Shown: one piece after another, positions 47,286 to 58,786 of the stretch
Layout of the letters: the number at the start of each line of letters is the position of its first letter
How positions within the stretch are numbered: position 1 is the first letter of the stretch
DNA from: a virus
Reading direction: 5' to 3' (one strand)
IMG/VR virus record: IMGVR_UViG_3300010885_044958
Coordinates: 1 to 64,000 of that record
Length of the DNA stretch: 64,000 bases
Position numbers and translations under genes: made by a program
The notes under the pieces: model-generated
What the model was told of the DNA's origin: nothing
Seen by the model: only the letters and a program-made list of their open reading frames with translations
The model's database searches: none

Positions 47286-47714
47286 TTATTTCATTTTTGA
47301 TCTATAGTAATGGGCACGTATATTATCGTTATATGAATCTTCTCTTAATATTGCATCTTCACAAAATAAGATTTTTTCTTCAGTATAATTTAATTGCATT
47401 TTTGAAGTGCAAAAAACTAAAATTTCTTTTTTAATATTTGCTCCATTTTTAATATCTTCATTGAGTGTAGCATTGCTGCCAGTGTAATCTAACCAATTAG
47501 ACTCTTTAACAACAATTTTATTTTTTTTGCGTCTATTGTTAGTGGCTTCTTGCTCTTTAAGAGAAATTTTAGTCTTTCTATGTGTATGTAATATCTTACG
47601 CCCCCAATATTTCTTATCATTGTCTAAATTAATTATTAAGTACACGAATCCCACAGAATTTTCTGGGCATTTTGCAATATCATCCACTATCTGACCTCTA
47701 TAAATCCAACTCAT
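47286..47714 (-). CDS. GIY-YIG-like nuclease domain protein
   Basis: GFVYLI.N......YWGRK...ESNW..Y.GS...KEIL...E...YN. Start set at MSWIY, downstream of the promoter. Confidence 0.7.
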   Translation of the reverse strand: MSWIYRGQIVDDIAKCPENSVGFVYLIINLDNDKKYWGRKILHTHRKTKISLKEQEATNNRRKKNKIVVKESNWLDYTGSNATLNEDIKNGANIKKEILVFCTSKMQLNYTEEKILFCEDAILREDSYNDNIRAHYYRSKMK

Positions 47715-47719
47715 AGGTG

Positions 47720-47751
47720 CAAAGATATAAAAAAAGAAAGTCTTAAACAAA
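47720..47751 (-). promoter_or_regulatory. Bacteroidota-type promoter
   Basis: Minus strand TTTG (47748-47751), 20-nt spacer, TATCTTTG (47720-47727). Confidence 0.75.
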
Positions 47752-47806: not shown

Positions 47807-48040
47807 TTAAGATATTTCATTTTTATTTTTAGCTAGCCATTTATCTAATCTTTGACCATCTCCTTCCCATATTTCTTCTTCTTCATCATATCCCCAAGCA
47901 TAAATCCATAATTTATCTGGATTTTCAAGAGCCATTAATTTTCTGGTGTCTCTTTTGCACATAACATTTTGTCTATGCCGTGCAATAATTTTTCCAGACT
48001 TATCTTTTATATCATATTCTACTACATTTGCACTTGTCAT
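47807..48040 (-). CDS. Hypothetical protein
   Basis: 77-aa ORF. Confidence 0.55.
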   Translation of the reverse strand: MTSANVVEYDIKDKSGKIIARHRQNVMCKRDTRKLMALENPDKLWIYAWGYDEEEEIWEGDGQRLDKWLAKNKNEIS

Positions 48041-48051
48041 ATTTTAATTTT

Positions 48052-49596
48052 TTAATCTCTAAACAATGCCTTTCCGTCAAATTGGAATTTATACGTGAGG
48101 TCATCTTTAAGACACCATTCAGATACTTTATCTCCATTTTCAATATCCTTAGCAAATCTATTTTTACGCTCTGTATAATACGCGATCAAATAATCTGAAA
48201 GAAACATTGCGTCTTTACTACTCTTATAATGCGTTTTATAAAAATTTAACACATCAATAAAACTAATTGTGTCTCCACATATAATCTTTTTTATGTTGTT
48301 TTCAGCAAACGCAATTACAGCACGATTCATAAACAACCAATTAACTGCTCTCTGACTATTCAAAGTTGCATCATGCAGTCTGGATTCGCAAGTACCGCTT
48401 GGAGAAAATAACATGTTGATAAAATTCCAATCATAATATCTACAACTTCTTTGCCATTTCTCCCTAATTGGATGCCTCATTTGTGTTCTATTTACTTCTT
48501 GATCCGCATGATGTCCCTCACTTAAAAACTCAAATATTCTATTATAAACCACATCTACAAATTGATCATACCCTTCTTTAGACTGATCTTTAAGTGAGTA
48601 AATAGACATTTTTTTGAGCTTTTGACAATAGTTTTTGCGTTTGATTCCACGATGATCTAGCTTATAATATGGAAACATCTTGAATATATCATCTTGAATT
48701 TGATAACATAACATATACAACGCAACCAGATAAACTCTTTCTTTAGGTAGATTTCCAAGATGAATGTGATAAGAACACCTTATATCTATTTGATTCCTCT
48801 TTTGCAATTCCTTACAAGTGTTTATTATATTCTGAATACCTTTTGCGCCTTCCATTGGAACAGTTACGTACTCAGGTCCACCTTCAAGACTACCATCTCT
48901 ACAAATTACTAGTCCAAGACGATTTTGTAAATAATCAGGCATACTGCCAACAGAAGCTTCAAACTCACACCCAAAACTTGTATTGCCTAAAAACTTTGCA
49001 TACTTTTTTGCATCATCCCCTATTTTCAGTCCATAATTCTTATACAATTCTTTCTTTTGTTCAAATTCCTTTGCATTATCTTCTATGTTATATCCTTTGT
49101 TAGTATAAGATTTGCTTGGACGAATTTTTTCCATTTGATTCTTATCGCCCTTACCAACTTCTCCTGTTTTATAAAATACATTTGCAGAAACGTCTTCAAA
49201 GAAATGCATTTTCAAAATTTCTGGATTCAGTGCAGTATAATTAGAATTTTTCCAGACAACTGGGCAATTATTGTATTCATTTTTAGTGAACCTACCTGTT
49301 ATAACATTGCCAGAAAAATCTACATCAACAATACCATTAATCATTTTCTTAGTATCCTTAATAAACCATTCTCCAGTTTCCCAATCTTTTTCTATTTTAC
49401 CAGAAGTAGTTCTATACCATTTTTGTTCAGATTCAATATAGAATATATCTGTAAAAACACTGTAATACTTGCCTTTAACAAATTTTGTATTCTTTCTATA
49501 TTCTGTTTTTCCATCGTGCGTCTCTACAACAGGAAAACCCAATGAAGGGTTCTCCGTGTAGGACTGTATTGTTGTTATTAATTTTTTTTGTATCAT
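48052..49596 (-). CDS. Putative amidoligase (glutamine synthetase-like COOH-NH2 ligase fold)
   Basis: FGCEFE, DGSL, EYVT.P, C..HIH, RY...N, T.E.R.H.AT. Confidence 0.85.
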   Translation of the reverse strand: MIQKKLITTIQSYTENPSLGFPVVETHDGKTEYRKNTKFVKGKYYSVFTDIFYIESEQKWYRTTSGKIEKDWETGEWFIKDTKKMINGIVDVDFSGNVITGRFTKNEYNNCPVVWKNSNYTALNPEILKMHFFEDVSANVFYKTGEVGKGDKNQMEKIRPSKSYTNKGYNIEDNAKEFEQKKELYKNYGLKIGDDAKKYAKFLGNTSFGCEFEASVGSMPDYLQNRLGLVICRDGSLEGGPEYVTVPMEGAKGIQNIINTCKELQKRNQIDIRCSYHIHLGNLPKERVYLVALYMLCYQIQDDIFKMFPYYKLDHRGIKRKNYCQKLKKMSIYSLKDQSKEGYDQFVDVVYNRIFEFLSEGHHADQEVNRTQMRHPIREKWQRSCRYYDWNFINMLFSPSGTCESRLHDATLNSQRAVNWLFMNRAVIAFAENNIKKIICGDTISFIDVLNFYKTHYKSSKDAMFLSDYLIAYYTERKNRFAKDIENGDKVSEWCLKDDLTYKFQFDGKALFRD

Positions 49597-51890
49597 ACAA
49601 CTGCTGTGTTTAATGTGCGATTGATTAATCCTGCAACCTCTTCGTCATCATTTTCTGTGGCGATATCTGCAATTTTATGCTTTATGTTATCTAAAATTTT
49701 GTACATTGCATCAGTTACTTCTTGAGCATACTTATTTGAAAGCATCCCAGACAATTCATCTACAGAATTATTTAATTCACCAAGAACTACAATCATTTCA
49801 CCAATTTTATCTCTGGCTATTGCCTCATCTATTTCTTCGTGATTTGGTTCATCTAGTTCTGGTTCATCCACTATTTCTGCATTTTCATAAACAATGATAT
49901 CTAATGGTTCTTTCTCCTCTGTTTGCAAAAGTTTTTCTTCTATTGTTGTTGTACTCGAACCTGGAGTATCTATTCCAAGCATTGATTTAATAGATTTTTT
50001 ATTCCAGTATTTATAAGGAATATCTGCAATTCTAAATCGCTTTTCCTCGTATCTTTCTAGAACATTCATTGCATCTTCTATTTCAGTTCTGATACTAGTT
50101 TGTCTTTTTACAGCATCTTCAATAGTCTTAGCAACTTCCCTATCCAGTTCTTCATTATCTGGGTCTAAAGTAGTATTTGGATCTTTAACCATACAATCAA
50201 AAACAAAATACTTTATTGCGTAGTACTGTTGCTCTTTTATTGCATTCATTGCTTCTGCTGCTGTAGTAAACACCTTATCATAAACAGAATCTCCGCCTGT
50301 TTGCAAAGTAAATTCTTCGTAAAACATTTTAGATTCATGCTTCTTATCGGATGTTTTTATGTCTTCCAAATAACCATTCTTTCCTATTGAATAATTTCTT
50401 GAAGAAAACAACGGTGTAAAGCTCTTAGACTTATATCTGTTATCGTCTAAATAAAATCCAAAACGCACATGCGCAGTCTGTCCTGTAGATTCTCCATGTA
50501 TATTTGTTACTGGATACATTGAATATTTACTAATCTGATGAGCAAAATTATGACTCATTAGATCTGGCAAAATCTTTTTATTTTTAATATCATCTTGAAG
50601 ATTATTCCATGCTTGCCCCCCTTTTAACATCACACCTCTATAAAAATAGTAAGCCTGTACATTTTGACCTTCTATATCATACCTTACACCCTTCTTATCT
50701 AACCAGAGTTTACCCATGCACAAAGCCGCGCTAGCATTCGGCATACGAAATCGCCCTTGCCAGAAATAGACCCTCCCACTTCCATCTAATGATTGATAAG
50801 GTCTTGTTTCATTCCAAATCTTTGAGCTTGAAGGTGTTACTCCCGGAATATCAAAAGGAATCATACCCTGTCCTTGTTGACCTCTTGTTATCAAATTTCT
50901 ATTTTGGCAACCTCTATTGTAATTAGGATAACACCCATCTCCATCCCAATTATAAGTATTATTATGCCCTTGATAAGTACTTACATGTACTACTTTTTCT
51001 TTACAATTAGGCCCATATAACCTCTTTACTTCGTGTTTAAATGTAGTAAATTTGCCATTTTTAATTTGCAAAACTACATTATAAGGAAAAACACAAATTT
51101 TATCATCTTTACTTGCTATTGCTCTTAAATATTCTGGAAGAGATGCAAAATACATACCTTCAGTAGTTTTCATATACCACATTGGTCTTTCTTCCCAGAC
51201 TGTATCCCCTTTATCTTCTGATTCATCTGGATGAGCATAATAACTACCGTGATAAACAAATAAACTATTTGGATCTCCTGCAAAATTCCATGCAAGTGCG
51301 GCATCTCCTTCATACTCATCCAATACTTTAAGACCTGCTTTATCTATACACATAGCAAGTCCTTCAGAATCTACTTGGTAACTACTATAAGGTATATTTG
51401 CCTCATTAGTAAGTTTTTGAATGTTACGGATGACTCCATTGTGAACGAGCCGTAAACATTTCTTAGGATCTTCATTTTCAATTGTAAATGGATGATTTGT
51501 ATCTTTTCCAGGAATTCCACCACCAGCAGCTTTACGATTATGAATCATTATTACACCACCATTATAAGTGATATTTTGCACATTATCTAAGTCTGAAATA
51601 AAGTTTTTCCAAGCCTTAGTATCTTTTTTAGTTGCGTTTGGTCCTTTCCAATCATCCCATCCTTTATATACTTCTCCGTTAATAAGCATTCCACAGCCAT
51701 CTCCACCACGATCTTGCAAATATAATCCTAAAATTTTCATTTTTTGGTAGGCAAGCATTTTTTGTGCTTCAGTAATTGCAGCTATCGGGGAAAAACAAGC
51801 CACTCCACATGGCAGTATCCCCGGAGTTCGTTTAAAGCAATTTATCAGTATAATCTGAATTATGATATAATAAAATATTATTGTTGACAT
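49593..51890 (-). CDS. Class II (Ntn) glutamine amidotransferase with an N-terminal hydrophobic leader and a long C-terminal extension
   Basis: CG at residues 28-29, RGGDGCG, HNRKA, HPF, HNGVI.N, VDSE, ERP. Confidence 0.85.
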   Translation of the reverse strand: MSTIIFYYIIIQIILINCFKRTPGILPCGVACFSPIAAITEAQKMLAYQKMKILGLYLQDRGGDGCGMLINGEVYKGWDDWKGPNATKKDTKAWKNFISDLDNVQNITYNGGVIMIHNRKAAGGGIPGKDTNHPFTIENEDPKKCLRLVHNGVIRNIQKLTNEANIPYSSYQVDSEGLAMCIDKAGLKVLDEYEGDAALAWNFAGDPNSLFVYHGSYYAHPDESEDKGDTVWEERPMWYMKTTEGMYFASLPEYLRAIASKDDKICVFPYNVVLQIKNGKFTTFKHEVKRLYGPNCKEKVVHVSTYQGHNNTYNWDGDGCYPNYNRGCQNRNLITRGQQGQGMIPFDIPGVTPSSSKIWNETRPYQSLDGSGRVYFWQGRFRMPNASAALCMGKLWLDKKGVRYDIEGQNVQAYYFYRGVMLKGGQAWNNLQDDIKNKKILPDLMSHNFAHQISKYSMYPVTNIHGESTGQTAHVRFGFYLDDNRYKSKSFTPLFSSRNYSIGKNGYLEDIKTSDKKHESKMFYEEFTLQTGGDSVYDKVFTTAAEAMNAIKEQQYYAIKYFVFDCMVKDPNTTLDPDNEELDREVAKTIEDAVKRQTSIRTEIEDAMNVLERYEEKRFRIADIPYKYWNKKSIKSMLGIDTPGSSTTTIEEKLLQTEEKEPLDIIVYENAEIVDEPELDEPNHEEIDEAIARDKIGEMIVVLGELNNSVDELSGMLSNKYAQEVTDAMYKILDNIKHKIADIATENDDEEVAGLINRTLNTAVV

Positions 51891-51917
51891 GTGTTTGTTT
51901 GTTGTTTTGTTTAAAAA

Positions 51918-51947
51918 TCGGGCTAGAATTATTAGTTCTAGCCCGTT
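51918..51947 (-). terminator. Hairpin (terminator or processing site) within the ligase cluster
   Basis: CGGGCTAGAA...TTCTAGCCCG stem with a T-run on the minus strand. Confidence 0.65.
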
Positions 51948-51956
51948 GTTAATAAA

Positions 51957-52865
51957 TTATTGTTTTACTTGTTCTTTATAGATACCGAGTTGCCTAGCTT
52001 TTTGTCGAGCTATTATTGGTAACTGATCTATATACCTCTGTGCTGTTATAGATCCGTAGCTTGGAGCACTACAAGATTCTATTACGATAAAATCTGGTGC
52101 CTCTCTTTGCTTACCTTTACCGTTTAATTCAGACTGTACTCGCAAATCTATTGCACCTACATCAAGACCTACAGATTTGATTGCTTTTACACATTCTTCT
52201 ACTATAGAATTCCAATTAGATGGTTTTTCAAATGTCTCATTATTTTCCAAAATCCAAACGCAATTATCATCATGCTTTTGAAATTTTTCATTTTCAGGCG
52301 TTCCATTTTTCAACATCTTACGACAAGTATAAAAACATGTACCGTTTACAGCATCAATATGTAACCTATATTCCCTTGAATAAGACATATAGTGTTCTAT
52401 AATATAATTACTCATATCATGTCCGGCTATAAATCTGTTTAATTCTTCTGATGTTTTTATAAATGAATTACCTTCGCCTCTAGACCCAAACAAACTTTTT
52501 ACAATAAGTGGGAATTTTAAATCCTCTATTTTTGCCGTTTTATCTGAACCAGAAACATGAAATAATGAATCTTTATATGTATACCAAGGTGCGGTTTTTA
52601 TTCCTGTCTGTGCAAAACATTTTTTCATCAATAATTTGCTAGAACTATTTTGCACACCTTTTATTTCATTTATTTCAATCATCTTTCCACCACGACTTAC
52701 AGCTTCTTCTGCGATTGTGGTACTACCTAACCTAACCACACATTTAAATGGCATACGAGGCAATTCTGTACGTAATACAGCATGTGAGGGATGACGTGAG
52801 AATACATGAAACTTATGACTTGTAGTTATTACCTTAGGCTGCAACTTCTTCTTTAGAGTATTCAT
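51957..52865 (-). CDS. ATP-grasp ligase (RimK-like)
   Basis: SSKL, FPLIVK...GSRGEG, IE.Y....EYR.H, GLD.GAID, IE..SAPS. Confidence 0.85.
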   Translation of the reverse strand: MNTLKKKLQPKVITTSHKFHVFSRHPSHAVLRTELPRMPFKCVVRLGSTTIAEEAVSRGGKMIEINEIKGVQNSSSKLLMKKCFAQTGIKTAPWYTYKDSLFHVSGSDKTAKIEDLKFPLIVKSLFGSRGEGNSFIKTSEELNRFIAGHDMSNYIIEHYMSYSREYRLHIDAVNGTCFYTCRKMLKNGTPENEKFQKHDDNCVWILENNETFEKPSNWNSIVEECVKAIKSVGLDVGAIDLRVQSELNGKGKQREAPDFIVIESCSAPSYGSITAQRYIDQLPIIARQKARQLGIYKEQVKQ

Positions 52866-53397
52866 ATATTTGTTTTAGATGTAAATAATTTAATCCGTCT
52901 GTTAATACTTCTAGTCTTGGTGTACCATTTTGTGTTCCATTATCATCATAATGTGATATTGCCGAACTAAAATATTTATTTTCTTTATCGTAGTCTTTTC
53001 TATTATCATAGTACCAAACCCTAGCTTCAATTTGTGGGCATTGCAAACTATAAATTTCTAAATTTTCATTCAATTCTACTAAAATACAAATACATTCTAA
53101 CAGAGTAAGACTTGGATAATAGTAATTAGCTAACAAAAACAAATCATGTGTTGATCTATTTTTATGCCCACGACATTGCATTATATTTTTTTCTTTTTCT
53201 TCGGCAGTTTCATCTACCCAAATACAATTATGTTCATATTCTTTATTCCATTTATTCAAAAACCAATTTAAAAATGATTTTGCATCCGGCAATTCATTAT
53301 AATCTAGTTCTTCATTCATTTTAAATCTGCGTTCTTGCAAATAATTTTTTTCGTTAGATGCAATTATTTCTAATATTTCTTGATCTTTTAGTTCCAT
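52834..53397 (-). CDS. Hypothetical protein in the ligase cluster
   Basis: 187 aa. QC....RS..D...L and C..I..RV. Confidence 0.6.
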   Translation of the reverse strand: MELKDQEILEIIASNEKNYLQERRFKMNEELDYNELPDAKSFLNWFLNKWNKEYEHNCIWVDETAEEKEKNIMQCRGHKNRSTHDLFLLANYYYPSLTLLECICILVELNENLEIYSLQCPQIEARVWYYDNRKDYDKENKYFSSAISHYDDNGTQNGTPRLEVLTDGLNYLHLKQIYEYSKEEVAA

Positions 53398-53400
53398 ATA

Positions 53401-54033
53401 TTATAGTTTATCTTCCATTAATTTTTTTAACAAATCTTGGCAATACTTTACTGGTTCTGATTCTACTTGCATAGCCTCTGGGTGCCATTGCGTTCCTAAA
53501 AACTGAGTCTTAGAGAAAAATAGAATTTCTGGTTCAATTGGCACATTCATTTGCTTACCTTCACCATCATCATGATGATTTGATAAATTATCTGCTGCAC
53601 CTATGATTCGATATTCATCTTCTGGCAAATTAAACGGATAACACATTTGGTGATGCATTGAGTTCACAGAAAATACTTTACCATCTTCTGTTTTAATTGT
53701 ATGCCTCCCTGGATGAGAAATATCTTGTATTAATTTTCCACCAGAAACTGCGCAACCATACTGAATTCCTTTGCATGTACCCCACAACTTTTTTCCAAGA
53801 CCTATCGCAGTTCTAATATCAGCAAGTTCTTCATCATGTTCCATTCTAGTAAATCCCCAACTAGCAGAATGCCTCTTTTCTTCGCCATAAATTCTTGTGT
53901 CGATATCGCTACCTCCATTTACAAAGACCAAATCAGCTTCTTCTACAGAATGTACTATTTCTCTATTTGGAACCCAGTTAGAATAACCAGAACCTCTTTT
54001 ACCTGCGTGATATACTTTTATCTTTTTTTGCAT
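53401..54033 (-). CDS. Class I glutamine amidotransferase / peptidase C26 (gamma-glutamyl hydrolase-like)
   Basis: GGSDID...YGE, GTCKG.Q nucleophile, VNSMHHQ, QWHPE. Confidence 0.9.
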   Translation of the reverse strand: MQKKIKVYHAGKRGSGYSNWVPNREIVHSVEEADLVFVNGGSDIDTRIYGEEKRHSASWGFTRMEHDEELADIRTAIGLGKKLWGTCKGIQYGCAVSGGKLIQDISHPGRHTIKTEDGKVFSVNSMHHQMCYPFNLPEDEYRIIGAADNLSNHHDDGEGKQMNVPIEPEILFFSKTQFLGTQWHPEAMQVESEPVKYCQDLLKKLMEDKL

Positions 54034-54038
54034 AATTT

Positions 54039-54863
54039 TTATTTTGGCATTTTAATTTTAAATTTTTCTATCCAATTCTTTGCAGATTCCAAGTCATTAT
54101 TATTTATTATTGCTTGAATATCATCTCCAAAGTTTTCTATTTCATATATGCGTCCTGCATTTACAAATTTTATTGCTTCTTCTGTTTGTTTAAAACACCA
54201 TTCTATTAGAGTCTTGGAGGATGCAAAATAGCCTGACAATACGCGATATTCTGCACCCCAAGGCTGTTGCCTCCAGTTACCAGCACAACCATATCCAGAT
54301 GTTCTCCTTTCATTTTCAGGCTCTAGAAACAGGCTAGGAATGCCTACAAATACATCCATAGCTTTCATTAATTCTATGTTTGTTTCTTTATTTGGAGATT
54401 CATAGCCAATATGCAAATGTGTCCCATTAACACGAAGACTATCACCATTTGGTACAGGATGTATTTCATCCATTGTCCAACAATTTAAGCTACTTTCGCA
54501 ACCGAAAGTATTTGCTGTTTCTGATTGTAATTGATCTTCATCTAATCTTGCACAGGCTGCAATTTCTATTTGTAAATTTTCTGGTAAAATACTATCTATA
54601 TATCTAAGAGCTTTCTGTACATTTAGATAAAATTGCCCGGCAGTTTTTGCAGGTTCAAGACCGAATTCTGCGCTGACACAATCTAAACTAGTAGCAAAGA
54701 ATTTACTACTCTCATCAAATTTGTGCGGATTTTTCTTTGTGCCCTTTATAATTCCTTCAGCAGTAACAACCTTATCTGAGATCTTATCTTTTAAAAAAAC
54801 CTCAATGTCTGAGCCTACTAACCAGTCAACAACCTTCTGTTTTTTTGCTTTTGCTATTGTCAT
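54039..54863 (-). CDS. phiEco32-like COOH-NH2 ligase type 2
   Basis: GSD.EVF, GTK..P, D.V.AEF, FGC, R..G.H.HIG, RR..YG.AG..R...WG.EYR.LS. Confidence 0.88.
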   Translation of the reverse strand: MTIAKAKKQKVVDWLVGSDIEVFLKDKISDKVVTAEGIIKGTKKNPHKFDESSKFFATSLDCVSAEFGLEPAKTAGQFYLNVQKALRYIDSILPENLQIEIAACARLDEDQLQSETANTFGCESSLNCWTMDEIHPVPNGDSLRVNGTHLHIGYESPNKETNIELMKAMDVFVGIPSLFLEPENERRTSGYGCAGNWRQQPWGAEYRVLSGYFASSKTLIEWCFKQTEEAIKFVNAGRIYEIENFGDDIQAIINNNDLESAKNWIEKFKIKMPK

Positions 54864-56032
54864 TTTGCATTTTTTAAAAAATTATACAACCCTTCATAAT
54901 CTTTATTTGTTATAAATGTTTTGCATTTTGGTATATCATTAATTCTATCTGGTAGATATTCAAATGATTCCCACATCTTATGCTTTGTTCTTATGTTGTT
55001 TACTATTACTTTTGGATCTGCAAAACAATTTAAAAGTCCTTTTGTTTGATAACCCATATGTACCAAACCTCTTTCTGTTAGATAATTCGGACCTAAATGT
55101 GCCATCATTAATGCTTCCCAATTAGATACTTTATCTTCTAAAGCATCTTTTATTTGCATTGCTAAAGCTGGAATATACCAGTGATTATTATGGTGCAAAT
55201 ATCTGAGTAACATCAAATGCAAATGACAATGCCATTCGTCTGCGTGATTTTTTACTTTAATTTCGACAAATGTTGATTTGCCTCCTGGAAAAATAGTGTA
55301 ATTGCTTGAATTTAAAACAAAATCTCTATCTTTTTCTGCAGGTGTTAATAATTTCTCGTAACATTTTGGAATTGCGCATTCACCTTCTAAAATATACTTA
55401 AATTCTATTTGGCAATTCTCTAAAAACTGCAACCACTTATGCACATCATAAATAGAATAGCCATAATAATTTAAATAGTAAGTAGGTAAATAATAAACAA
55501 AATCCATTTTTGTCTTGATATAATCACAACAATCTGCTTTAAAGCCAATTTGACCTCTACAAGCTTCACTTGCTAAATCTTCTTTAATTTGTCCAGTTTT
55601 AAAATCTATTGTGCATTTAGCTGTATAAACATACAATGTAATTGCCGATAAATTATTTTTTAGAATTCGTATATTCTTATTACAATCTATCTGAGAATAA
55701 TTTCCAGTAGAAGGTTTTCTAAATAGTTCTTCTGTGTCTAAAATATGTTTAAATGCTTCTTTTTCATATGCTGCTGCAATTTCTTCATATTTTTTAAAAT
55801 CTTTTTCTGCAATTTCTTCTAGATCTGCTTGTTGAAAAATATATCTTTTTGTATTTCCTGCACTAAAATAATTTACATAAAGTTGCCAAGCATCAGGTCT
55901 TGTATAGCCTTTGCTTGCAGTTTCTGAAGAAATGACTCCATACACACTATGTTTTTGTAAATTTTGCATTTCATTATTCAAACTGGTATACTTGTGGGGA
56001 TTCTTTATTAATACTCTGCTTCCAATTTGCAT
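54860..56032 (-). CDS. Hypothetical protein in the ligase cluster
   Basis: 390-aa ORF overlapping both neighbours. Confidence 0.65.
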   Translation of the reverse strand: MQIGSRVLIKNPHKYTSLNNEMQNLQKHSVYGVISSETASKGYTRPDAWQLYVNYFSAGNTKRYIFQQADLEEIAEKDFKKYEEIAAAYEKEAFKHILDTEELFRKPSTGNYSQIDCNKNIRILKNNLSAITLYVYTAKCTIDFKTGQIKEDLASEACRGQIGFKADCCDYIKTKMDFVYYLPTYYLNYYGYSIYDVHKWLQFLENCQIEFKYILEGECAIPKCYEKLLTPAEKDRDFVLNSSNYTIFPGGKSTFVEIKVKNHADEWHCHLHLMLLRYLHHNNHWYIPALAMQIKDALEDKVSNWEALMMAHLGPNYLTERGLVHMGYQTKGLLNCFADPKVIVNNIRTKHKMWESFEYLPDRINDIPKCKTFITNKDYEGLYNFLKNAK

Positions 56033-56457
56033 TTTGTGTCCAGTTTATGTGATTTTCTAATAAATTTTCTTTTACGATAATCGCCTGATTCAATTAGTTG
56101 TTCTTTAGCCCCAACAAAATCTGGTTGCCAAAATATAAATGCATTTCCAAATTCAGTTTCTATTAATTTTGCTTGGCCTCCACAAATATATTTTAAGAGA
56201 TTTTGCAAAACTGCATTTTGAGTAATTTTATATACTTCACAATGAATTGCAGAACTTCCCTTACCTAGTATACATGTATACCCTAAATTATACATTGTAA
56301 ATATAGGTTCTGTTAATATATTTCCTAGATATTCCGATTTATACTCAAGTAAAATTTTATTTTTAACTGATCCTTTTAATAAAGATCCCGAAACCAATAT
56401 TGTGATTTCGGGAGTAGTTTTATCTATCTTTAAATTTTTATTTAAATTTGTCTCCAT
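56008..56457 (-). CDS. Gamma-glutamylcyclotransferase-like protein (divergent)
   Basis: V.GSL.KG, F.MY.LG.., I..EVY.I, C-terminal I.SGD(Y/W). Confidence 0.65.
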   Translation of the reverse strand: METNLNKNLKIDKTTPEITILVSGSLLKGSVKNKILLEYKSEYLGNILTEPIFTMYNLGYTCILGKGSSAIHCEVYKITQNAVLQNLLKYICGGQAKLIETEFGNAFIFWQPDFVGAKEQLIESGDYRKRKFIRKSHKLDTKCKLEAEY

Positions 56458-57166
56458 TTATATATTGTTTTATTAAATTTATAATTAATTCTTCTGGCCA
56501 ATCAAGCTTTAAACTATTCCACCACCAGCAAACTATTCTACAATTATCTTGAGTATATCCTTTGCTATTATCAATTCTATCTATTGATGGAAGTAACGGA
56601 TTTGATTTGTATGCTTCTTTAGATGGAGATATTATTAAATCAAATCCTGTAGCTTCACATTTTAGTAAGGAAATTTGTGTAAGAAACCATTCTTTTGTTA
56701 AATTAAATTCAAGATTTCTTTTTTTAGCTGAATTTTTAGTAGAGCAAAATAGTTTATTTGCAAATCCGGTAAATGTTAAAAAATGCTCTTTTCTAGATCT
56801 TCTTTCGTGCATTTTTTCTGGATTGTTATGATAGTATTCTTTTGATTTATTTCGATGTGTTTCCATTACATCAGGCCTCTGACGGTATATTTGCATATAC
56901 TTATCTTCGCATTCAATGCATTTTGATCTATAGCCTATCTTAACTTTTGGATTTTTATAAAAACAATCTGTTGTTTTTGTTTCTTTACATAAATCACAAA
57001 CTTTATATCCGGTTTCAATTAATTTCATAGCTCTTCTGTACTTTCCAACAGCAGCATTTCTACACTTCTTACACTGGTTTATATAACCATCTTTAATACA
57101 TTTTGAACGAAAAAAGTGTGAGATATCTTTTTCTTCTTTACATACATGGCATATCTTTTTTTCCAT
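56438..57166 (-). CDS. HNH-type (His-Me finger) homing endonuclease with two Zn-finger repeats
   Basis: Two CxxC..K....F......GY...CxxC repeats, and C..TG...PSIDRIDNSKGYTQDNC..VC...N..K. Confidence 0.85.
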   Translation of the reverse strand: MEKKICHVCKEEKDISHFFRSKCIKDGYINQCKKCRNAAVGKYRRAMKLIETGYKVCDLCKETKTTDCFYKNPKVKIGYRSKCIECEDKYMQIYRQRPDVMETHRNKSKEYYHNNPEKMHERRSRKEHFLTFTGFANKLFCSTKNSAKKRNLEFNLTKEWFLTQISLLKCEATGFDLIISPSKEAYKSNPLLPSIDRIDNSKGYTQDNCRIVCWWWNSLKLDWPEELIINLIKQYINGDKFK

Positions 57167-58752: not shown

Positions 58753-58786
58753 AAAAAATGGGCTGCAAAACTTAATCTGCAGCCCT
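58753..58786 (-). terminator. Intrinsic terminator
   Basis: GGGCTGCA...TGCAGCCC stem with a T-run on the minus strand. Confidence 0.75.

Follow-up and report, generated by a model that had tools for sequence, protein, structure and literature searches.

An intact phiEco32-type amidoligase cassette in an uncultured freshwater crAss-like phage and its predicted amidation and gamma-glutamyl chemistry

Introduction

A cassette of amidoligase and associated genes in phages was reportedly described by Iyer et al. in 2009 by sequence analysis. In podoviruses of the phiEco32, LUZ24 and RIO-1 type, it contains a COOH-NH2 ligase, an Amidoligase_2 protein, a class-II glutamine amidotransferase (GATase), an ATP-grasp ligase and a GGCT protein. 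Passages of two genome papers place these enzyme families among the early DNA-metabolism genes (PMC5498523, PMC6209634), and sections of two further genome papers also list the cassette (PMC3517423, PMC10580990). The cell-wall or superinfection role proposed in 2009 is repeated, without experiments, in the relevant sections of three papers (PMC5498523, PMC10580990, PMC11706807). This work analyses such a cassette in a stretch of 64,000 nucleotides, referred to here as the window, which forms the start of a single phage record of 134,236 bp (IMG/VR record IMGVR_UViG_3300010885_044958). The cassette runs from position 56457 to position 48052 on the minus strand, where eight co-oriented open reading frames (ORFs) encode six enzymes and two proteins without a family match, of 390 and 187 amino acids (U390 and U187). 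A first-pass annotation of the same DNA had reported eight co-oriented and mostly overlapping ORFs, and all eight are indeed present.

In the window, the phiEco32-type phage amidoligase cassette is present as an intact copy, which belongs, therefore, to a kind that has already been described. What this copy adds is a class-I amidotransferase of the peptidase C26 type, which is common to many relatives, two lineage-restricted proteins, a hairpin and a divergent GGCT-like protein. The C26 enzyme, U390 and U187 are the additions that set it apart from the podovirus cassettes named above.

The Enzymes of the Cassette

Five of the six enzymes score above the curated Pfam cut-off (scores are given below in bits, with the cut-off in brackets) and the sixth, the GGCT-like protein, is a weaker call, backed by PHROGs and by alignment; with this reservation, all six enzyme calls of the first-pass annotation hold. 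The amidoligase (514 aa, 48052-49596, minus strand) matches Amidoligase_2 (PF12224) with 33.1 bits (cut-off 22), and its residues E211, E213, R233, D234, E242, H277, H279, R386, E404 and R406 are invariant in 50 full-length homologues. Its gene overlaps by 4 nt that of the class-II, N-terminal nucleophile (Ntn) glutamine amidotransferase (765 aa, 49593-51890, minus strand), which matches GATase_6 with 37.3 bits (cut-off 27) and in which C28, R119, N151, G152 and D174 are invariant in 61 sequences. We take R119, N151-G152 and D174 to be the counterparts of the Arg, Asn-Gly and Asp of GlmS that serve in glutamyl binding and the oxyanion hole. Because of this invariant Arg, Asn-Gly and Asp, we argue for glutamine or a gamma-glutamyl-X compound as the likely substrate of the Ntn enzyme.

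The COOH-NH2 ligase type 2, an ATP-dependent carboxylate-amine ligase (274 aa, 54039-54863, minus strand), reaches 36.3 bits against PF14395 (cut-off 25) and matches phrog_3815 (E 1e-50); D19, E21, K43, D61, E66, R144, H149, R186, R198, E205 and R207 are each conserved in at least 99% of 68 sequences. The class-I glutamine amidotransferase of the peptidase C26 (gamma-glutamyl hydrolase) type (210 aa, 53401-54033, minus strand) matches Peptidase_C26 with 46.5 bits (cut-off 20.5). Its best solved relative is Lin1909 (3fij, E 4e-9), over an alignment that spans the Cys and H-P-E motifs, and each member of its triad (C87, H184, E186) is retained in 97% of 76 sequences. The RimK-like ATP-grasp ligase (302 aa, 51957-52865, minus strand) lies just above the Pfam cut-offs for ATP-grasp (27.1 bits, cut-off 27) and RimK (21.4 bits, cut-off 21) and matches phrog_2599 (E 4.5e-25); against the NCBIfam model rimK_fam it obtains 39.3 bits (E 4.6e-10), below the cut-off of 143.4. 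Its residues K77, E165, R167, H169, K183, D240 and E263 are kept in at least 98% of 59 sequences.

The GGCT/AIG2-like protein (149 aa, 56008..56457, minus strand) is the weak call among the six. It stays below the cut-off for both GGACT (18.8 bits, cut-off 22.8) and AH_C (20.4 bits, cut-off 27), matches phrog_2520 (E 7e-5), and aligns in a hidden Markov model alignment with 62 homologues from related loci. In the resulting 63 sequences, position 74 is Glu in 52 and Asp in 10, and the window protein retains this catalytic Glu74. Position 23 is Tyr in 60 of the 63, with a Ser found exclusively in the window, while position 27, Arg in 53 and Leu in 5, is Leu in the window, where the family motif YGTLR reads SGSLL. 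The possibility raised in the first-pass annotation that catalytic residues might be degenerate was checked in this way for every enzyme: they are kept throughout, except for this Tyr and Arg. A PADLOC search returned no match for nine proteins.

Structures were predicted for the two large enzymes. The amidoligase model, built from a 50-sequence alignment, has a predicted local distance difference test (pLDDT) score of 93.2 and consists of a beta-rich N-terminal domain (residues ~20-145) and a glutamine-synthetase / glutamate-cysteine-ligase (GS/GCL) fold at residues 186-514, with fold matches to GS, GmaS, YbdK and GshA. The AlphaFold2 (AF2) model of the amidotransferase (pLDDT 85) comprises, besides the Ntn domain (residues 28-290, with fold matches to EgtC, PurF and AsnB), a helix at residues 2-18, a disordered linker, a middle domain, and a tail made up of helices, a disordered acidic segment and a helical hairpin. 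For both large enzymes, the matches of whole-model fold searches fall on the catalytic domains. The middle domain of the amidotransferase (~350-527) is well modelled and contains the conserved residues E361, R380, N448, R498 and Y500 (61 sequences); an Atlas feature search with residues 350-640 found no match, and in the 61 amidotransferases the GATase families are the only recurrent Pfam matches, a single weak Phage_int_SAM_4 match in one member being all that appeared besides. As a separate observation, a free-standing 74-aa ORF in one of the nearest relatives (L007:5466-5687) matches the first 70 positions of the profile of the amidoligase N-terminal domain (E 2e-23), and it is the sole stand-alone copy of this domain among the genome of the window and 76 loci.

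Relationship to Described Cassettes

The link to phiEco32-like phages drawn in the first-pass annotation holds on several counts: the match to PF14395, which Pfam names 'Phage phiEco32-like COOH.NH2 ligase-type 2', the amidoligase gene beside a class-II GATase gene, the ATP-grasp gene, and the early-gene context. Searched with tblastn, the COOH-NH2 ligase matches 243 deposited phage records at ~30-33% identity, 121 of them from Pseudomonas phages and 29 from Escherichia phages; the hosts comprise Pseudomonas, Escherichia, Vibrio, Cellulophaga, Leptolyngbya and a planctomycete. The long amidotransferase of the window is matched, by the same method, in 5 deposited records only.

A close cultured counterpart is found in Cellulophaga phage phi14:2 (Crassvirales, Steigviridae; NC_021806.1), whose genes g037-g041 have the same position and core as the window cassette. 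Its gene order is primase, GGCT, ATP-grasp, COOH-NH2 ligase, class-II amidotransferase, amidoligase, UDG and exonuclease. The phi14:2 amidotransferase, like that of the window, carries a hydrophobic leader before its Cys, which is residue 32; the two proteins align over 665 columns (E 2e-30; BFVD Foldseek), with ~30% tblastn identity over the Ntn domain. Unlike the window, phi14:2 has no C26-type amidotransferase, U390 or U187, and the order of its ATP-grasp and COOH-NH2 ligase genes differs. The nearest uncultured relatives are two IMG/VR loci (L007 and L008) with 45-66% identity across the cassette, which share with the window the hairpin, the A/C-rich sequence that follows it and the leader in front of the catalytic Cys. 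They differ from it in that L007 has its COOH-NH2 ligase gene split by an insertion of ~1.2 kb, and L008 possesses neither U390 nor the C26 enzyme, its U187 being part of a fusion with the ATP-grasp enzyme.

Three Enzyme Pairs

For a census of the cassette, 73 IMG/VR loci were collected with the amidoligase alignment and their ORFs were searched with profiles iterated from the window proteins. Counts refer to the 66 loci in which the sequence upstream of the amidoligase gene is at least 8 kb long, excluding L009, L010 and three deposited phages. The class-II amidotransferase is present in all 66 and always directly adjoins the amidoligase. The COOH-NH2 ligase follows with 65 loci, the C26 enzyme with 56, the ATP-grasp enzyme with 55 and GGCT with 47, while the U187 and U390 families occur in just 12 and 9. 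The C26 enzyme adjoins the COOH-NH2 ligase in 45 of the 58 loci that have both genes, and GGCT adjoins the ATP-grasp enzyme in 20 of 48. In 10 loci (contigs of 42 to 305 kb) the C26 enzyme, COOH-NH2 ligase, amidotransferase and amidoligase stand alone.

On the basis of these presence and adjacency counts, the cassette reads as three pairs, the obligate core being the amidotransferase-amidoligase pair. The second pair is that of the COOH-NH2 ligase and the C26 enzyme, and the third that of the GGCT-like protein and the ATP-grasp ligase, with U187 as the probable accessory of the latter. A report of OM43 phages, in the section concerned, gives them just an amidoligase and a GATase (PMC10580990), which fits this core. 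The first-pass annotation had grouped the genes as three ligases, two ammonia donors or hydrolases, and one eraser; the enzymes themselves stand, and the grouping is better replaced by three pairs with an invariant core. The write/erase system that it built on this grouping, and the targets that it proposed, are hypothetical. A lack of co-conservation, which it had named as refuting its idea, is not observed, since the gene set recurs across the 73 IMG/VR loci; together with the ligase matches in the 243 deposited phage records, this recurrence places the set far beyond chance.

Two further features of the relatives were noticed in this census. Cassette genes are split in many of them into two ORFs ~0.4-1.3 kb apart: the COOH-NH2 ligase in L007 (2424-4466), L023, L038, L065 and L074, the amidoligase in L020, L021 and L031, and the ATP-grasp enzyme in L013 and L025. 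This suggests introns, inteins or homing-endonuclease insertions; the window cassette is intact and is flanked by HNH and GIY-YIG genes. In addition, the 177-kb IMG/VR contig L063 carries an amidotransferase-amidoligase pair and, ~7 kb further on, a second run of C26, COOH-NH2 ligase and amidotransferase genes at the end of the locus, which may be a duplicated module.

The Leader of the Amidotransferase

Ntn amidotransferases need their catalytic Cys as a free N-terminus. In the window enzyme, the Cys aligned structurally with residue 1 or 2 of PurF, GlmS, AsnB and EgtC is Cys28, and it is preceded by a hydrophobic, membrane-helix-like leader of 27 codons (51810..51890, minus strand; helix 2-18 in the AF2 model). 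The leader consists of a hydrophobic helix and then basic residues, with no start codon immediately before Cys28. An exhaustive search recovered 1095 relatives of the amidotransferase at E<=1e-3; among the best 150 representatives, 88 have a leader of 23-41 residues (median 28), 52 start with Met-Cys-Gly, 5 have short or weak extensions and 5 are without the motif. Among the 72 distinct sequences of the related loci, 32 have the leader and 40 do not, and on a quick maximum-likelihood tree of these sequences the trait requires 16 changes, at least 10 of the changes being forced by well-supported branches. Near-identical pairs compared at the DNA level show an ATG plus about 27 codons cleanly present or absent. 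The leader is, hence, a translated, optional and frequently toggled element.

For the members that carry it, we infer removal of the leader by self-cleavage, together with a membrane tether: the Ntn enzyme would lose its 27 residues, exposing Cys28, and the leader would probably hold or delay the pro-enzyme at the membrane. A bolder version of this idea, which we consider unlikely but worth stating, makes the leader a switchable zymogen device, in which an inactive pro-amidotransferase would be anchored in the inner membrane beside the amidoligase until self-cleavage fires the pathway. If so, a membrane-bound target such as a lipid-linked envelope precursor would be implied, and the clean gain and loss of 27 codons (at least 10 changes in 72 sequences) would represent rapid tuning in an arms race. 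We know of no membrane-tethered, self-releasing Ntn amidotransferase, although no dedicated literature search was made on this point.

A leader that brings the Ntn enzyme to the membrane would also suit the envelope remodelling hypothesis, according to which the cassette acts at the inner membrane face on the stem peptide of peptidoglycan or on its lipid-linked precursor, by amidation, extension or trimming, for the purpose of blocking superinfection or tuning lysis. Free carboxylates, which MurT/GatD and AsnB-type systems amidate, occur in the stem peptide along with a gamma-D-Glu bond, and a cluster of sugar-nucleotide and glycosyltransferase genes elsewhere in the phage indicates an investment in surface chemistry. 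The hypothesis has been published, in the passages concerned, under the name 'peptidoglycan modification cassette' (PMC5498523) and has been repeated since (PMC10580990, PMC11706807). However, no peptidoglycan-binding domain, Mur-ligase domain or export signal was found in the eight cassette proteins with Pfam and NCBIfam, the charges that follow the helix point to an enzyme in the cytoplasm, and the leader itself, lacking in 40 of 72 relatives, is dispensable. Moreover, the cassette lies among replication genes in all clades, and the part of PMC11706807 that deals with the core pair reports it in viruses assigned, by predicted host, to archaea without peptidoglycan. Taken together, these points make envelope remodelling a rather doubtful explanation.

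Cassette Layout and Transcription

The junctions between the cassette genes are tight, with overlaps of 25, 4, 32 and 4 nt and gaps of 5 and 3 nt. The sole larger gap, of 66 nt, lies between the ATP-grasp gene and the 765-aa amidotransferase gene, and a hairpin scan found in it a terminator-like hairpin with a T-run (51919..51945, minus strand), followed by an A/C-rich leader sequence before the amidotransferase ATG. The hairpin has a G+C-rich stem of 10 pairs and a minimum free energy, as RNA, of -16.4 kcal/mol (z -8.4); none of 200 shuffles was equally stable. A similar hairpin occurs at the equivalent site in L007 and L008, and the A/C-rich sequence is conserved among these two and the window. 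In the other 72 of 74 loci no convincing hairpin was seen: three further hits elsewhere are stems of 6-7 bp within long gaps, and beyond the hairpin clade the ATP-grasp and amidotransferase genes abut. A terminator as a general division of the cassette was consequently rejected, since the convincing hairpin is found in just 2 of the 74 related loci.

A second strong terminator-like hairpin (10 pairs, 6 of them G-C, with a T-run) is located upstream of the primase gene at 58760-58785 on the minus strand, and it could mark the start of a unit holding the first six cassette genes. The 32-nt overlap is that between the U187 and ATP-grasp genes (52834-52865), which are read in differing frames in the window and form one ORF in two relatives.

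Proposed Chemistry and Target

On balance, we lean slightly towards reading the cassette as a whole as a system for glutamine-dependent amidation and gamma-glutamyl build-and-trim chemistry. Each of the three ligases would activate a carboxylate as an acyl-phosphate at the expense of ATP. For both ligase-amidotransferase pairs, the most likely amine would be ammonia derived from glutamine, which would convert carboxylates into carboxamides; this ammonia-transfer step is put forward tentatively, as something short of probable. The ATP-grasp enzyme would extend a terminal carboxylate by a glutamate-type residue. Gamma-glutamyl amide bonds could also be cleaved by three members of the set (the C26 enzyme, the Ntn enzyme and GGCT), so the set could both build and trim such bonds.

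Several well-studied systems offer parallels, among them MurT/GatD and Gat-QueC in amidation, and PuuA/PuuD, GshA/GshB/GGCT and BtrJ/BtrG in gamma-glutamyl cycles. The resemblance is one of logic alone. It lies either in the gene of an ATP-dependent carboxylate-activating enzyme that stands beside one for a glutaminase or gamma-glutamyl hydrolase, or in the combination of a GS/GCL-fold ligase, an ATP-grasp ligase and a GGCT-type remover. There is no orthology with these systems, and the cassette ligases do not have Mur-ligase or QueC folds: a Mur-ligase-fold subunit of the MurT/GatD type was not found, the amidoligase model having a GS/GCL fold and the COOH-NH2 ligase matching PF14395 (by sequence alone).

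A number of points weigh against the amidation and build-and-trim reading. EgtC and PuuD are gamma-glutamyl hydrolases, and the Ntn and C26 enzymes could likewise be hydrolases instead of ammonia donors, two roles that sequence does not distinguish. The GGCT-like protein of the window, with its score below the cut-off and devoid of the family Tyr and Arg, may be weak or inactive. The usual metal motif of ATP-grasp enzymes is E-x-N, and the last one of the window enzyme is E-S-C, without the Asn. The hairpin may split the cassette into two transcription units in the clade of the window. The absence of the leader from 40 of the 72 relatives implies that it is not needed for the core reaction, and its self-cleavage is our deduction. 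The census profiles were built from the proteins of the window itself and are prone to drift, and the class-I profile recovers more than one kind of GATase-like ORF per locus. Finally, the first-pass annotation had described the function as a proposal, and the literature searched, supplements not covered, agrees with it in holding genome descriptions only, with no experiment on the product or function of the cassette.

As for the target, our first choice is a small metabolite, either gamma-glutamyl or amidated, followed by an envelope precursor, a protein and, in last place, DNA. A small metabolite fits the very wide host range of the cassette, which, from the portion of PMC11706807 on this subject, possibly extends to archaeal viruses.

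The Two Proteins without a Known Family

U390 (54860-56032, minus strand) and U187 (52834-53397, minus strand) match no family in Pfam, PHROGs, NCBIfam or PADLOC, and an exact-word search of 5.8 billion proteins gave three homologues of the former and two of the latter. The profile search over the 73 IMG/VR loci detected U390 in 10, including 9 of the 66 that were counted, and in 9 of the 10 it is directly upstream of the COOH-NH2 ligase gene. Its Atlas model has low confidence (pLDDT 0.39) and led to no usable structural match, and no relation was detected by hhalign with two hypothetical proteins in the equivalent position of cr108_1. By its distribution, U390 is an add-on confined to the subclade of the window and dispensable for the core chemistry.

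The U187 family comprises 18 ORFs in 14 loci, often near the primase gene instead of the ATP-grasp gene. Ser82 and Cys120 (S82, C120) are invariant in 17 sequences, and close homologues end in an acidic C-terminal tail, E-E-[VI]-[AS]-A. The U187 profile matched no PDB sequence, and no Pfam family was matched by more than one of the 17 members. In two relatives, U187 is fused to the N-terminus of the ATP-grasp enzyme in one ORF (L008, 4024-5445, 474 aa; L020, 6280-7716, 479 aa). Because of these fusions, U187 is probably an accessory or substrate-selecting domain of the ATP-grasp enzyme rather than its substrate; the link between the two is real and not universal.

These distributions also bear on protein tagging, in which the ligases would link glutamate or a small peptide to a protein of the phage or its host, in a Pup-like or RimK-like manner, and the hydrolases would remove it, with U390, U187 or a 77-aa ORF next to the cassette as the substrate. 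The ATP-grasp enzyme is nearest to the RimK family, whose members extend the C-terminal glutamate of proteins or cofactors, and the acidic tail of the close U187 homologues would suit such a role. Nevertheless, the candidate substrates are not conserved (U390 in 9 and U187 in 12 of 66 loci, and the 77-aa ORF without a homologue in 76 loci, in which ORFs of at least 60 aa were examined), the tail becomes a linker in the two relatives where U187 is fused to the enzyme, and the same fold matches metabolite ligases (GS, GmaS, YbdK, GshA) equally well. Protein tagging is, in our opinion, improbable. The suggestion of the first-pass annotation that the two ORFs might be substrates or scaffolds was not upheld as a general one, given their scarcity and the fusion of U187 to an enzyme.

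Genome and Gene Neighbourhood

The phage from which the window comes has three consecutive giant ORFs of 2267, 2985 and 2165 aa (11993-34279, plus strand), as in crAss-like phages; its closest deposited relatives, cr108_1 and Cellulophaga phage phi14:2, belong to the Crassvirales, and DNA matches to the region come solely from freshwater metagenomes, with no RNA data set among those listed. It is for these reasons considered an uncultured freshwater crAss-like phage; the Bacteroidota host that the first-pass annotation chose for expression is an assumption. CheckV estimates the record as 73% complete. The record is classed as linear, yet its final 13 bases (134224-134236) equal the first 13 (1-13), which hints at a circular assembly.

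The cassette lies within a minus-strand gene arm extending from ~38 kb to 84 kb. On its upstream side lie genes for an HNH endonuclease, a primase, Sak4 and a DnaB-like helicase, and on its downstream side a 77-aa ORFan and genes for a GIY-YIG endonuclease, a PD-(D/E)XK exonuclease and UvsX. With primase, Sak4 and helicase on one side and exonuclease and UvsX on the other, it has the DNA-metabolism context of phiEco32-type cassettes. The HNH / endonuclease VII-like gene (56438..57166, minus strand; phrog_3322, E 6.6e-28; phrog_1035, E 3.5e-27) belongs to the flank and not to the pathway, and the downstream flank contains the SegE-like GIY-YIG homing endonuclease gene (47286-47750, minus strand; SegE_GIY-YIG, E 5.9e-24) and the 77-aa ORFan (47807-48040, minus strand). 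The latter, located downstream of the amidoligase gene, was considered as a carrier protein and rejected, as no homologue was found among 76 loci and the rest of its own genome.

The cassette is between primase and exonuclease or UDG genes in cr108_1 and phi14:2 as well, and all crAss-like relatives have it between primase and UDG or recombination/exonuclease genes. This position would speak for hypermodification of DNA or nucleotides, in which the ligases would add glutamyl or amide groups to a base or to a nucleotide precursor as protection against restriction. Phage Ntn amidotransferases team up with an ATP-dependent amidating enzyme in 7-deazaguanine DNA modification (Gat-QueC), and a Pantoea phage protein of the 'Gat-QueC' type appears at rank 10 among the BFVD matches. 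On the other hand, the 134-kb record (73% complete) has no ThyA/hydroxymethylase-like and no TGT/DpdA-like gene, no thymidine-hypermodification kinase or transferase was seen in the subset of its ORFs that was scanned, and Pfam and NCBIfam detect no nucleic-acid-binding domain in the cassette proteins. We therefore give DNA modification little credence.

Outside the window, a plus-strand block of the same genome (~95.1-103.3 kb; L004:11146-19291) encodes PhoH, a GDP-mannose 4,6-dehydratase, a second NAD-dependent epimerase/reductase and two GT2 glycosyltransferases, with a GT1-like glycosyltransferase farther upstream (L004:7645-8718). The block resembles a sugar-nucleotide and glycosylation cluster, and modification of the virion or of the host surface would be a possible role.

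Implications for the Cassette Family

Three results refine the picture of the whole family, namely the arrangement in pairs, the fusion of U187 and the toggling of the leader; they do not themselves reveal the product. As the obligate core, the amidotransferase-amidoligase pair would be the first thing to reconstitute, and the inferred self-processing of a membrane-like leader in many members would offer a simple biochemical entry point. Cultured carriers such as phi14:2 (Cellulophaga), phiEco32 (E. coli) and LUZ24 (Pseudomonas) make the different readings testable. With carriers among hundreds of cultured podoviruses and many crAss-like phages, the cassette is among the most widespread phage enzyme sets without a known function.

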